Part shown: positions 46,980-51,434 of the stretch, piece by piece
Layout of the letters: every line of letters starts with the position of its first letter
Numbering within the stretch: the first letter of the stretch is position 1
Assembly: GCA_964521305.1 (NCBI GenBank)
Contig: CAZFQZ010000001.1
Coordinates: forward strand, 22-64,021
Length of the DNA stretch: 64,000 nt
DNA from: an uncultured Gammaproteobacteria bacterium
GTDB taxonomy: Bacteria; Patescibacteriota; Microgenomatia; UBA1406; GWC2-37-13
Reading direction: 5' to 3'
Notes under the pieces: model-generated
Seen by the model: the letters and a program-made list of their open reading frames with translations, nothing else
Told to the model about the DNA's origin: nothing
The model's database searches: none
Translations under genes and position numbers: made by a program

Positions 46980-49900
46980 ATGACCGGTTTCTTTGATTTT
47001 ATTAAAAATCAGACAGATAATACAAGTCAATTTTCTTCTCCGCAACAACCAGGCGGGATGGGCAAGCAACTAAATGGTATCGGTATTTCACAACAATCGC
47101 CATCGACATACTCGGGTATCGGTACGCCACACGGAGGCGGCACTCCATATTCGGGGATCGGTCCTGCCCCTGCTCCGCACGTTCCGGAGCAAACAAGCGC
47201 GCCGCCGCAACCGATTGTAAATCCGACTCAACCAGCGGCAACCCCTGCAGCAGTACCCGAGACGCCGGAACGGAAATCCGCAGAACAAAAACCAATCGTA
47301 TCCGGAACGGGTCCCCAACAACAAAATAAGCAGGATATGGGTATTAAATTGTCCCAGCGATCCGAACATGTTTTGGAAGCGGCGCAGACAAAAGCAAAAG
47401 AACTCGGTAGCAGTGCGGTCGAGTGTGAGCATATTTTACATGCTTTGGCAGGTGATTCGGGAATACAGACGCTTTTATCAAAATTCAAGATTCAACAGTC
47501 TCGCATTGAAGAGGAGCTACTCAAGGCATATAAAAAAGGAAGCAGTCAAACCAATCAGAATGGGCTTGATGCTTCGGCACAGCTTAAAAAAATTCTTGAA
47601 AATGCAGTGAGCGCTGCACGGAAATACGGCTCACTTAATATCGAGCCTGAACATATTCTTTACGCAATGGTTGAAGAAGGTGAAAATGTTGGAGCCCGCA
47701 TTCTTGTCCAGTTGGGCTTAAAAAAAGAAGAGCTGGAAAAGCAAATGGTTTTGCAGCAGGTATCCAAAGAAGAGCAGAAAACTCCCGAACAAAAAAGACA
47801 GGAAGAGTTGGATTTGATGACTCACTTGACGCAAAGATCCAACCGTGTATTTTTATCCGCGCAGACAAAAGCAAAAGAGCTGCATAATAATTATATGGAC
47901 AGCGAACATGTCCTGCACGGATTGTTGTCGGATTCCGAAATCTATAATTTCTTTACCGAACAAAAAATACTGCCCCAGACCATAGAAGAAGAGTTGGGGA
48001 AACTGTATAAAAATGATACGGCCGGTAAACCCGAAGATCAAAAGCCACCGCAAATATCACCGCGCGTAAAACGGATTCTCGATAGCTCCCTTGTCATCGC
48101 GCGAAAACTCGGATTTGAGTTCATCTCCCCCGAACATCTGTTGCTCGCGCTGTATGAAGAAGGAGAAGGAGTAGGAGCGCGTGTCCTGGCAAAACTTGGT
48201 TTGAAAAAAGAAGAGTTGAATAAAAAAATCACCGGCAAGAGAGAGGGATTGACGAGCGAAACGCAGGAAGCGCAGCAGCATAAAACAGAACTTGAGCAGT
48301 TTACCATAGATCTGACCGCAAAAGCCGCCCAGGGTTTATTGGATCCGGTTGTCGAACGATCTGAGGTTGTCGAGCGCGTTATCCATATCCTTTCCCGACG
48401 GACCAAAAACAATCCGTCATTGGTCGGTGAAGCGGGGGTAGGAAAGACGGCGATCGTTGAAGGGCTGGCCCAGAAAATAGTCGCGAAGGAAGTTCCCGAG
48501 CCAATGTTGAACAAGAAAATACTGCAGCTTGACCTGATGAGCATTTTGGCAGGCGCTTCGCACCGGGGTGAATTCGAAGAACGCATGAAAAATCTCATCG
48601 AGGAGGTCAAGGCAAGCCAGGGACAGATCATATTGTTCATAGACGAAATCCACAACATTGTCGGCGCCGGATCGTCGGGCGAAGGTTCTATGGACGCGTC
48701 GAATTTCCTGAAACCAGCTTTAGCAAGGGGAGAGATCCAGCTTATCGGAGCAACCACATTGACAGAGTACAGGAAATATATAGAAAAGGATCCGGCGTTG
48801 GAGCGCAGGTTCCAACCGGTCCTTGTTCCCGAACCGACCGAGGAGCAGGCAATCAAAATGCTGGAAGCGATTAAGGACAAGTATGAGGCATTCCACCGCG
48901 TCAGCATCCCACAGGAGGCGATCGACGCGGCGGTCAAATTTTCCAAACGCTACGTTGGCGACCGTTTCCTGCCGGATAAGGCAGTTGATTTGATCGACGA
49001 AGCGGCATCAGCGGTCCGTCTGCCTTTAATATCCCTTCCGGAAGAGATAAAATCATTGCAGACGCGCATTGCCGAACTGAATCAGGAATTGACCGAAGCC
49101 GAAACCCGCGGTGACCAGGTGAAAGCGCGCATTTTACGTTCAAAACTTGACGATATCCAAACCAATCTCAAGGAGAAACAGGATCAGTTCAATCTGAAAA
49201 AAAGCCAGACAACCACGAGTATTTCCTTAGAAATCATCAAGGATATTGTTTCCCGCTGGACAGGTATTCCGGTATCCAAAATAACGGGGAGCGAGGTAGA
49301 AAAACTGGCTCATCTGGAAGAAATCATGCACGAGAGGCTTATCGATCAGGAAGCTGCGGTCAGCGCGGTCTCAGATGCGGTTCGCCGCGGCAGGGCAGGT
49401 TTAAAGTCGACGCAACGGCCTATCGGCAGTTTCGTATTCTTAGGGCCAACCGGTGTGGGAAAAACCGAATTGGCTAAGACACTGGCCGATATATTATTCG
49501 GCCAGGAAGAGGCAATGATCCGTTTCGACATGACTGAATACATGGAAAAACACGAGGTAGCAAAACTTCTGGGCGCTCCTCCCGGATATGTCGGATACGA
49601 AGAGGGTGGAAAACTCACCGAGGCGGTCCGGAGAAAGCCGTACTCAGTTGTACTTTTTGACGAGGTTGAGAAAGCGCATCCGGACATATTTAACATATTG
49701 CTGCAGATTTTGGATGACGGTCGGTTGACCGACAACAAAGGCCATGTGATTTCATTCAAGAATTCCGTAGTCATTTGCACGTCAAACATAGGCACGGGAA
49801 TTATCCAGGATGAAATGCTGAAAAGCGGAAAAACGGAAATAGAAGAACCTCCGATACTATCTACATACGCGTTCTCGCCTCGCGGTAGGGAAATCCTGTC

Positions 49901-51434
49901 GATCGGAACGAAATATTTCGAAAGAGACATAAAAATGACTGTTCCCGTGGGGGGAGATTCGGCGGACAAAACAGCCATAAAAACCGATACGAAAGCAAAG
50001 AAGCAACCCACTCAGAAAAGCGATTGGAAAAACGGCATGCTTTTGGATTACTTTGCCGGTCAGGAACTGGAAAAAGACGATAAAGCCGAAACGGAAAAGA
50101 CGGACGATGATAAACAGAAAATGGATTTCCCGGTACAGGGATTTGACACGCATGCTATATCATCGAAAGGCGTGGAGATGATTTCCAAAGGTAACCTTAC
50201 GTATATGCGAACGTCGACGACCGCAAAAACGTGGAAAATAGTATCGTTAATTGAACTTTTCAAAGACAGCGTGGTGATCAATGCGCTGCCCGATGCCCCT
50301 GACGAGCAGTTGCCTACGGTGCGATTGAAAACCCACGCATTCACGCCGGATGAAACCGAGATTATTACGTATAAAGATCGGTATTGGAAGAGAAAAGAAG
50401 AAACGCGAGACTGGAAAACCGAATATTTGAAAAACTATTTTATGGACCAAACCGTAACGCAGGAGCAGACCGATCCCAAAAAAACAGGTGCGGAAAGCGA
50501 AAAACAGGGTTTCCCGACAACACACTGGGATATCCATACCTTTTCCCCTGCAGGAAAAGAGATTATTATTGTCGGAGAAAATATCTGGTACAGGAGTGTG
50601 AATGAAAAAGCATGGAAAACCAATACCCTAAAAGCGTATTTCGGTTCAGACTTTCCATTGGATAAGGAGATATTGGAAAAGAAAAAAGTTGATGAGGAGG
50701 TTGACAAGAAAAAATATACCGTTGTTAAAGACAAGGTTATGGGAGAACTTAGAAAGTTTTTTAGACCCGAGCTTATCAACCGGTTCGACGAGGTGATTAT
50801 CTTCGAACCGCTTCGCTTCGTGCACATGATGGCGATCGTGAAGCTGCAACTGAAAGGAGTGGGAAAACTGCTTGAGGATCAGGATATGGGATTCATGTAT
50901 ACGGATGAATCCATAAAGGAAATCGTACGCGCAGGTTTTGATCCCATATATGGTGCACGGCCGCTCCGGCGAGCAATCCAAAAACTTATCGAGAATCCTA
51001 TTTCAACGCTCATAATAGACGGAAAAGTAAAACAAGGCGATCAGATTCTCGTTGATTTTGACGGCGAGAATTTCGTGTTTAATGTCGAGAAAGTCGAATT
51101 GGTCGATGCGTCAAAACTGAAAGAGCGGCAAATCAAATCATATTTGTGCGAATCCTGCGCAAACAAGTTTAAAACGAAGGTTTTAAAAACCGCGACCGTT
51201 ATATGTTCGAAGTGCACCTCAACCAAACTGCAGGAAGTTATCGAAGAACCTGAACAACAGAAAGCTGAGGAAAAAGCAAAAACAGATGCCGGTTTCACGT
51301 CTGCGACAGGAGATCAGAAAAAATCCGAGCAGGCAGGAATCAAAACAGACGGTGCGATTCCGAATACAGCGCAAGGTGTTGGTCCGAACCAGGAAAAAAC
51401 TCCTCCGAGTCCAGCTCAAGCAGCTGCTGTATAA
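46980..51434 (+). CDS. atypical ClpC/ClpB-family double-ring AAA+ ATPase (1484 aa) with extra domains
   Basis: P/Q/G-rich N-tail, two complete tandem Clp_N domains, NBD1 ([16 protein letters not shown]), short ClpC-like M-domain and NBD2 ([46 protein letters not shown]). A ~280-aa repeat insertion sits in NBD2, followed by a C-terminal CxxC-N17-CxxC and a low-complexity tail. Confidence 0.9.
49860..50648 (+). repeat. four tandem ~40-aa protein repeats inserted in NBD2 of the ClpC-like gene
   Basis: R1 [23 protein letters not shown]...[12 protein letters not shown]2 [41 protein letters not shown]3 [40 protein letters not shown]4 [39 protein letters not shown]. Confidence 0.85.

Follow-up and report, generated by a model that had tools for sequence, protein, structure and literature searches.

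A predicted hemopexin-fold beta-propeller in place of the ClpP-docking loop of a ClpC-type ATPase from Microgenomates bacteria

The stretch of DNA analyzed here (64,000 nucleotides of contig CAZFQZ010000001.1, assembly GCA_964521305.1, in the following referred to as the window) stems from an uncultured Roizmanbacteria-like bacterium and encodes a ClpC-type double AAA+ ATPase of 1484 amino acids (aa), in which a 302-aa insertion occupies the position of the loop that docks the peptidase ClpP in canonical ClpC. Based on AlphaFold2 (AF2) modelling, the insert is predicted to be a four-bladed beta-propeller of the hemopexin fold, approximately 300 aa in size including three unstructured charged loops. 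Concerning its function, we give slightly better than even credence to a conserved binding platform on the exit face of a ClpP-independent unfoldase. The structural identity of the insert and the order of evolutionary events leading to it are well supported, and the function, the exit-face geometry and the independence of ClpP are what we infer.

The host protein was assigned to the ClpC branch of the Hsp100 ATPases. Pfam analysis of the 1484-aa protein reported Clp_N (four matches), AAA, AAA_lid_9, AAA_2 and ClpB_D2-small; the AAA_2 match, representing the second AAA+ module (D2), is interrupted, and its best stretch ends at profile position 136 of 166. Among all chains of the PDB, Bacillus subtilis ClpC was the top phmmer match (E 4e-231), with aa 358-941 corresponding almost without gaps to ClpC residues 79-664 and aa 1244-1367 to residues 680-803. 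A short middle domain of ClpC length and a Clp N-terminal domain are both present, as expected for ClpC, and a UVR motif was not reported by the Pfam scan. Moreover, none of the NCBIfam equivalog cut-offs of the ClpB, ClpA, ClpK and ClpG models was reached: the ClpB model TIGR03346 scored 972 bits (cut-off 1232) in three separate stretches, and the ClpK and ClpG models scored 812 and 785 bits, respectively (cut-off 1900 each), both below threshold and each in one continuous alignment covering aa 273-947. The gene and the features of the encoded ATPase are as follows.

46980-51434 (+): ClpC-type double AAA+ ATPase gene (Hsp100 class I), a complete, single and uninterrupted open reading frame (ORF) of 1484 aa
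46980-47339 (+): P/Q/G-rich low-complexity N-terminal tail (aa 1-120), read from the sequence, without Pfam match
47340-48233 (+): two tandem complete Clp N-domains (aa 121-258 and 280-418), corresponding to the four Clp_N repeat matches
48291-49139 (+): first AAA+ module (D1), from Pfam, phmmer and motif reading
48426-48449 (+): D1 Walker A motif GEAGVGKT (motif reading)
48549-48578 (+): D1 pore loop (aa 524-533) with His where Tyr is usual (motif reading)
48630-48653 (+): D1 Walker B motif ILFIDEIH (motif reading)
49287-49802 (+): large subdomain of D2, through sensor-1 and the next helix, from Pfam and phmmer; predicted local distance difference test (pLDDT) score above 90 in the AF2 model of D2 with the insert
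49443-49466 (+): D2 Walker A motif GPTGVGKT (motif reading)
49572-49598 (+): D2 pore loop GAPPGYVGY, intact (motif reading)
49647-49676 (+): D2 Walker B motif (motif reading)
49779-49793 (+): sensor-1 motif TSNIG (aa 934; motif reading)
50814-51104 (+): D2 small subdomain (Pfam ClpB_D2-small, aa 1282-1358)
51147-51215 (+): zinc-ribbon-like motif CxxC-x17-CxxC (aa 1390-1412), C-terminal to the D2 small subdomain, read from the sequence

The Walker A and B motifs of both rings, sensor-1 and the GYVG pore loop of D2 are all intact. The D1 pore loop departs from the Hsp100 consensus K-Y-R-G-E-F-E in that the substrate-gripping Tyr is replaced by His, a residue found at this position in 56 of the 57 family members in which the motif was located. 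Within the family examined, the duplication of the N-domain was observed solely for the window gene and one related locus. Furthermore, the zinc-ribbon-like motif, from which a low-complexity tail extends to the stop codon, is present in 71 of 81 family members and also in sister proteins lacking the propeller.

The loop following sensor-1 of the last AAA+ ring defines the coupling of Clp unfoldases to their protease. In the window protein, aa 942-1243 replace residues 665-679 of B. subtilis ClpC according to the phmmer alignment, i.e., a loop of 15 aa (LKRNKYVGFNVQDET) carrying the ClpP-docking tripeptide VGF at residues 671-673 (checked in residues 649-714 of PDB entry 3j3s). The first-pass annotation of this DNA had located the insertion at the ClpP-docking loop, between TSNIG at 49779 and KDKVMGEL at about 50730. 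Both landmarks were recovered (49779 and, for KDKVMGEL on the return side of the insertion, nucleotide 50727 or aa 1250), and the placement is corroborated by the agreement of the phmmer alignment, the 3j3s residues and an AF2 model of D2 with the insert. In this model, the insertion is preceded by the sensor-1 strand (model residues 161-166) and its following helix (170-180) and is succeeded by the final helix of the large subdomain. The spacing of 35-40 aa that had been taken as canonical for sensor-1 to KDKVM needs correction, the distance from TSNVG to KDKVM being 24 aa in B. subtilis ClpC.

The insert contains four repeat units (aa 958-983 together with 1016-1028; 1050-1096; 1114-1156; 1178-1222). 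Local alignments of all unit pairs yielded z values of 5.1-14.0, and none of 1000 shuffles per pair matched the observed score. Four copies of a unit of about 40 aa had been described initially; the number holds, the unit is longer (about 45-47 aa) and starts earlier, opening with (F/L)P-x-x-x-hydrophobic-(D/K)-(T/I)-H, and its first copy is interrupted by a non-conserved loop of 32 aa (aa 984-1015). Cysteine residues are absent from aa 942-1243.

Structure prediction and a fold search, both proposed at the outset, were carried out and pointed to a propeller of the hemopexin fold. The AF2 model of aa 942-1248, calculated from an alignment of 17 sequences, reached a mean pLDDT of 80.6 and a predicted template modelling score (pTM) of 0.78, with 160 residues above pLDDT 90. 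It comprises four blades, each consisting of four strands and a short helix, and it has three low-confidence stretches, one within blade 1 and two in the linkers that follow blades 1 and 3. Among the 50 PDB matches listed by Foldseek, the top positions are taken by hemopexin, vitronectin, the hemopexin-like (HX) domains of matrix metalloproteinases (MMPs) and plant hemopexin-fold seed albumins (best E about 1e-6, probability 1.0, template modelling scores of 0.57-0.74 normalized to isolated HX domains, identity about 9%); the remaining matches are larger beta-propellers. Conservation, expressed as mean top-residue frequency over 52 family members, amounts to 0.63-0.78 in the blades vs. 0.12-0.27 in the linkers. 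The parts of the insertion are listed below.

49803-50708 (+): whole insertion (302 aa, aa 942-1243), from the phmmer alignment to B. subtilis ClpC
49851-49928 (+): blade 1, strands A-C (AF2 strands at insert residues 21-24, 29-34 and 37-42; conservation 0.78)
49929-50024 (+): loop between strands C and D of blade 1 (aa 984-1015, 32 aa), predicted to be disordered (pLDDT below 50; conservation 0.12)
50025-50063 (+): blade 1, strand D and short helix (AF2; conservation 0.76; DYFAGQ nearly invariant)
50064-50126 (+): variable acidic/lysine-rich linker between blades 1 and 2 (low pLDDT; conservation 0.27; length varying with the species)
50127-50267 (+): blade 2, including the first QGF at 50136-50144 (AF2, repeat scores, conservation)
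50268-50318 (+): segment joining blade 2 to blade 3, the most conserved part of the insert (pLDDT 86-94)
50319-50447 (+): blade 3 (AF2, repeat scores; conservation 0.74)
50448-50510 (+): variable linker from blade 3 to blade 4, with the second QGF (50505-50513) at its end (conservation 0.19)
50511-50645 (+): blade 4 (AF2, repeat scores, conservation)
50646-50813 (+): return segment, a long helix continuous with the final helix of the large subdomain of D2 (AF2 models; aligned to ClpC from residue 680)

The return helix spans residues 286-306 in the insert model and residues 457-491 in the model including D2. The segment joining blades 2 and 3 is peculiar to the ClpC version of the module; its invariant columns were seen in the independently found sequences P0001-P0016, and its conservation within the fetched loci is circular, the scan pattern having been built from it.

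Sequence comparisons led to the same fold by a separate route. Pfam searches with the insert and with single repeats gave no match even at E <= 10, PF00045 included, and a profile of the insert found one match among PDB sequences, a spurious one to ASXL1 located in a linker. The profile search that had been suggested for the repeats was performed with the insert alone against 1.84e9 (1.84 billion) representative proteins and yielded 44 matches at E <= 0.001, secreted CPR (candidate phyla radiation) enzymes among them. The best of these are fragments of the same ClpC-type protein; the others include three DUF2961 proteins, several GH39/42-like glycoside hydrolases, one dockerin protein and one Peptidase_C39_2 protein. 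The extracellular modules were matched with hmmsearch E values of 1e-15 to 3e-4. Those non-ClpC matches whose sequences were read carry four tandem repeats, and several open with a signal peptide or membrane anchor. Repeats of the GH39/42-like and C39 proteins follow the pattern I-D-x-A-Y-F-D-x-x-G-G-Y-T-V-I-K-G-D-R-Y-W-Y-R...W-Y-x-N-T-L-x-S-A-Y, and the versions in the DUF2961 and dockerin proteins are more divergent. Members with a named lineage originate from Candidatus Beckwithbacteria, Dojkabacteria and the "Patescibacteria group".

Alignment of the ClpC insert profile to that of the extracellular repeats by hhalign gave a probability of 98.5% (E 2.6e-15) over 184 columns with the aligned blades in register; as judged from these sequences, the repeat module of secreted CPR enzymes is a homologue of the ClpC propeller. 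When the extracellular-repeat profile was searched against all PDB chains at E <= 10, the only matches obtained were hemopexin (E 0.063) and the HX domain of MMP-14 (E 0.2). The Pfam Hemopexin model matched the starts of the extracellular repeats with 10-12.6 bits, the gathering score being 21.3. Across the module carriers P0152, P0153, P0160, P0165, P0168, P0172, P0173, P0175 and P0176, Pfam Hemopexin was observed below threshold or not at all. Since the fold search and the sequence evidence agree, the insert is interpreted as a divergent hemopexin-like propeller homologous to the secreted-enzyme module of CPR bacteria.

A docking tripeptide of the ClpP type was not found in the insert. As stated in the first-pass annotation for [LIV]G[FL], no [LIVM]G[FL] occurs between aa 939 and 1249 of the window protein. 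The QGF tripeptides noted there before repeats 2 and 4 are both present (aa 1053 and 1176), of which the second is not conserved, relatives having G-x-[FL]-P at this position. The first is conserved as x-G-[F/Y], with G in at least 95% of the family followed by F or Y; the residue ahead of G is in most members Q, H, F or Y. Retention of ClpP as partner through a non-canonical contact of this kind, with [LIV]G[FY] in some species, could draw on the conservation of G, on L, I, V or M as first residue in about 12 of 58 family members and on the common occurrence of ClpP in Patescibacteria (PMC12361377). However, most members deviate at the first position, and the aromatic side chain takes the place of the hydrophobic one that opens strand A in every blade. 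The F at aa 1055 corresponds to the W of H-W-D-I-H in blade 4, to the L of R-L-K-T-H in blade 3 and, in the extracellular homologues, to the hydrophobic I/V of the blade-start motif of the I-D-A-A type. By analogy to hemopexin it should be buried, and it is modelled with a pLDDT of about 91 just ahead of strand A of blade 2 rather than in a flexible loop. In addition, a propeller of about 25-30 kDa would sterically hinder the stacking of rings. Retained ClpP docking is thus regarded as extremely improbable, and QGF is a structural blade-start motif rather than a docking tripeptide.

The module is encoded in at least 93 GTDB species, 80 loci of which were fetched. The scan covered one genome per GTDB species; since its patterns were derived from the segment joining blades 2 and 3, this number is a lower bound. 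An exact search for the window protein in public assemblies gave no record. Where record titles name a lineage, nearly all refer to metagenome-assembled genomes (MAGs) of Candidatus Roizmanbacteria, Microgenomates or Patescibacteria. Many TPA_asm records (L001, L004, L007, L008 and others) are titled 'uncultured Gammaproteobacteria bacterium'; these titles look like placeholder labels, since the gene and its synteny match those of Roizmanbacteria MAGs. Most loci carry the ClpC-type gene as a single intact ORF of 1180-1610 aa. A few assemblies (L017 with protein P0002, and L004) have two ORFs (490 and 874 aa) instead, with the break in or close to the insert, which probably reflects frameshifts or assembly errors and not genuine split genes. 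An intein, a mobile element and a frameshift artefact were considered as origins of the insertion and rejected in view of its continuous frame, its presence in 80 species and its conservation at the protein level.

In five species (L065, L071, L072, L075 and L080) the module is doubled: sensor-1 and the return helix lie 526-555 aa apart, and the ClpC ORFs measure 1579-1610 aa. Judging from the sequence in which the units follow each other, one propeller seems to be nested within the blade 1 C-D loop of another. These data bear on the question of whether the insert could be a passenger, i.e., a largely neutral insertion in an unconstrained loop, kept by chance or for solubility. Such an origin would fit the hypervariability of the loop in relatives (24-59 aa), and insertions in conserved genes (rRNA) are said to have been described for CPR genomes by Brown and co-workers in 2015. 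Nevertheless, no fewer than 93 species have kept the frame intact, conservation is strong in the blades and the linkers drift freely, motifs specific to the ClpC version are invariant, and the module was duplicated, not lost, in one subclade. A passenger role is therefore considered very unlikely, and the propeller has probably been kept under purifying selection.

The history of the insertion site was deduced from relatives lacking the propeller. A search with D2 after deletion of the insert identified P0018-P0027 as the closest of these, being 71-75% identical in D2 and sharing the C-terminal zinc ribbon with the propeller proteins; one of them is named Roizmanbacteria. In these sequences, TSNxG and the KxKVM helix are separated only by a Lys-, Glu- and Gln-rich stretch of 32-55 residues. 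Including further Microgenomates, the loop measures 24-59 aa and is hypervariable in length and composition. At the insertion site, [LIVM]G[FL] is absent from P0018-P0027 and from further Microgenomates such as the Levybacteria sequence P0121; a canonical IGF was encountered solely in the outlying sequence P0058. In a neighbour-joining (NJ) tree of the insert-deleted D2, the propeller sequences form one clade nested within the group lacking the tripeptide. From this nesting it follows that the tripeptide, and with it presumably the docking of ClpP, was lost before the propeller was inserted, and the order of ClpP tripeptide loss, hypervariable loop, single propeller insertion and local duplication is well supported. 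Moreover, since relatives without propeller already lack the tripeptide, the insertion site may simply be a permissive loop.

Based on these results, the following scenario is proposed. The host belongs to a Microgenomates (CPR) clade of ClpC-type ATPases in which the ClpP tripeptide had already been lost. Most likely it unfolds or remodels proteins independently of ClpP, as ClpB, ClpG and ClpL do. The propeller was recruited from the repeat module of secreted glycoside hydrolases and peptidases of CPR bacteria, with a single entry at the base of a Roizmanbacteria-type clade and subsequent maintenance. It is tethered to D2 through a connector of about 10 residues at one end and an unbroken helix at the other. 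Since both ends are closely tied to D2 and the site faces ClpP in canonical enzymes, the substrate exit pore of a hexamer would be surrounded by six propellers; the projection from the exit face of D2 that had been predicted earlier is expected from the topology of the AAA+ fold. The connections from strand D to strand A, comprising the two charged linkers and the invariant segment between blades 2 and 3, would lie on the D2-facing side, because propeller topology places them on the face at which the chain enters and exits. In this position the propellers may function as a protein- or ligand-binding platform recruiting a partner or holding the emerging chain, and their bulk alone would block docking of the ClpP type. 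It is also conceivable, albeit unlikely, that the six propellers (twelve in some species) build an extra tier beneath D2 which hands chains to a non-ClpP partner or a holding chamber.

A partner other than ClpP had been suggested in the first-pass annotation. This is possible, although no working ClpP loop was displaced by the insertion and the conserved gene neighbourhood offers no candidate. In its most specific form the suggestion amounts to a docking adaptor, in which six propellers couple the motor to another downstream machine such as a peptidase chamber or a membrane complex, which would receive the unfolded chains. The propeller indeed occupies the face through which canonical ClpC is coupled to ClpP, an invariant surface segment specific to the ClpC version is present and the zinc ribbon is conserved on the same face; hemopexin-fold domains, as in MMPs and hemopexin, are classic protein-protein interaction modules. 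The genes surrounding the ClpC-type gene, and the RNA genes of the window, are summarized here.

39239-42892 (+): ORF of 1217 aa without Pfam match, recurring near the ClpC gene in 17 loci
42908-43711 (+) and 51832-52146 (+): T4SS_pilin-like small membrane proteins flanking the region, the commonest recurring neighbour family (68 loci)
43722-45377 (-): polytopic membrane protein ORF of 551 aa without Pfam match, recurring near the ClpC gene in 39 loci
45421-45843 (-): small membrane protein related to the C39-like one, divergent from the ClpC gene
45853-46923 (-): membrane-anchored Peptidase_C39_2-like protein, divergent from the ClpC gene
13620-13738 (-): lone 5S rRNA gene, with no 16S or 23S rRNA gene in the 64 kb
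55655-55738: one tRNA gene

Other conserved neighbours encode a nucleotidyl transferase, an amino-acid-kinase/methyltransferase fusion and RecF. The divergent arrangement of the C39-like and small membrane proteins was observed in about 49 of 81 loci. The neighbouring genes were considered as partners of the propeller and rejected as unsupported, their products being membrane or secreted proteins without evident link. As regards the docking adaptor, the nearest peptidase upstream, the C39-like protein, is anchored in the membrane at its N-terminus and looks extracytoplasmic, which speaks against it together with the lack of a candidate partner. Moreover, the tripeptide is already missing in relatives without propeller, so that a replacement coupler was not needed. 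Coupling to a specific downstream machine is accordingly rated as improbable.

Alternatively, the propellers could be elements of assembly or regulation that touch each other or a second ring instead of an outside partner and thereby stabilize the hexamer or form a tail-to-tail resting state gating activity. Some HX-like domains dimerize (PDB entry 1itv is titled 'Dimeric form of the haemopexin domain of MMP9'). Six propellers of about 4 nm would, on geometric grounds, be roughly enough to line a circle of the radius at which the ClpP loops lie, and the doubled module in five species would suggest a structural tier. In addition, ClpC proteins such as that of Staphylococcus aureus use extra contacts for resting states. 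On the other hand, the sister proteins evidently assemble without a propeller, and the oligomer geometry considered here is deduced. An assembly function thus appears quite unlikely.

The binding platform on a ClpP-independent unfoldase remains our preferred interpretation, and several points weigh against it. No partner candidate was found in the conserved neighbourhood, the members of which are membrane or secreted proteins. ClpP is common in single-cell genomes of Patescibacteria (PMC12361377), and its absence can therefore not be assumed. Independence of ClpP is presumed from the absent tripeptide and hence from sequence. With ClpP of E. coli and of B. subtilis and a fragment of ClpX as tblastn queries, neither clpP nor clpX was matched in the 64-kb window or in 1.15 Mb of related loci; as these loci are copies of one syntenic region, the result is uninformative for the genomes as a whole. 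A second ClpC paralogue was likewise not found in the window or the loci. The clp genes described in the TM7x paper belong to the host and were set aside as not relevant. The fold assignment depends on one AF2 model from a 17-sequence alignment, the link to hemopexin lies below the Pfam threshold at the sequence level, and the NJ tree is crude, being built from fragments. Finally, the AF2 model of D2 with the insert (606 aa; alignment of 53 sequences, mostly propeller-less relatives) has D2 flanks above pLDDT 90, leaves most of the insert below 50 with parts of blades 2 and 4 recovered, and does not give the orientation of the propeller relative to D2.

Compared with known systems, the protein is closest to ClpC (B. 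subtilis ClpC/MecB, S. aureus ClpC, Mycobacterium tuberculosis ClpC1), with which it shares the N-domain, two AAA+ modules, the short middle domain, the D2 small subdomain, intact Walker motifs and the GYVG pore loop of D2. It differs from ClpC in lacking the V/I/L-G-F tripeptide and a Pfam UVR match, in bearing a 302-aa propeller in place of a 15-aa loop, and by the His in the D1 pore loop, the zinc ribbon, the low-complexity tails and the duplicated N-domain. The stand-alone disaggregases ClpB/Hsp104, ClpG/ClpK and ClpL also lack the ClpP-docking tripeptide, and ClpG/ClpK resemble the window protein in having additional N- and C-terminal extensions. However, it stays far under the curated cut-offs of ClpB, ClpK and ClpG, and its middle domain is of ClpC length, not ClpB length. 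To our knowledge, no folded domain occurs at this D2 loop in ClpB/Hsp104, ClpG/ClpK or ClpL, and the searchable literature yielded no report of a Clp/Hsp100 ATPase with a folded domain in this place.

HX domains (hemopexin, vitronectin, MMPs, plant seed albumins) have in common with the insert the four blades of four strands and a blade start and Gly/Trp pattern resembling I-D-A-A...G..Y.F.G..YW. In contrast to them, the insert has no Pfam PF00045 match, shows about 9% identity, lacks the disulfide between blades 1 and 4, is cytoplasmic and internal to another domain, and contains long charged loops within and between blades. Closure of the propeller may be achieved by anchoring both ends in D2 instead of by the disulfide. 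The secreted-enzyme modules of the CPR (P0152-P0176) are homologous over the four-blade unit and stem from the same bacterial radiation. They are located C-terminally on GH39/42-like, dockerin and C39 proteins and N-terminally to DUF2961, with short linkers and without the invariant segment between blades 2 and 3, whereas the ClpC version is internal and cytoplasmic.

Results obtained in this study suggest that the exit face of this motor now does a job other than ClpP docking. The family represents a natural experiment on the uses to which an Hsp100 exit face is put once the coupling to ClpP has been lost, and an example of how CPR bacteria, with their reduced genomes, have recruited a domain of secreted enzymes into a core machine of the cytoplasm. 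The system is tractable by recombinant expression and cryo-electron microscopy, for which culture of the organism is not needed. If coupling through an extra tier were true, it would constitute a previously unseen wiring of an Hsp100 unfoldase to downstream machinery.

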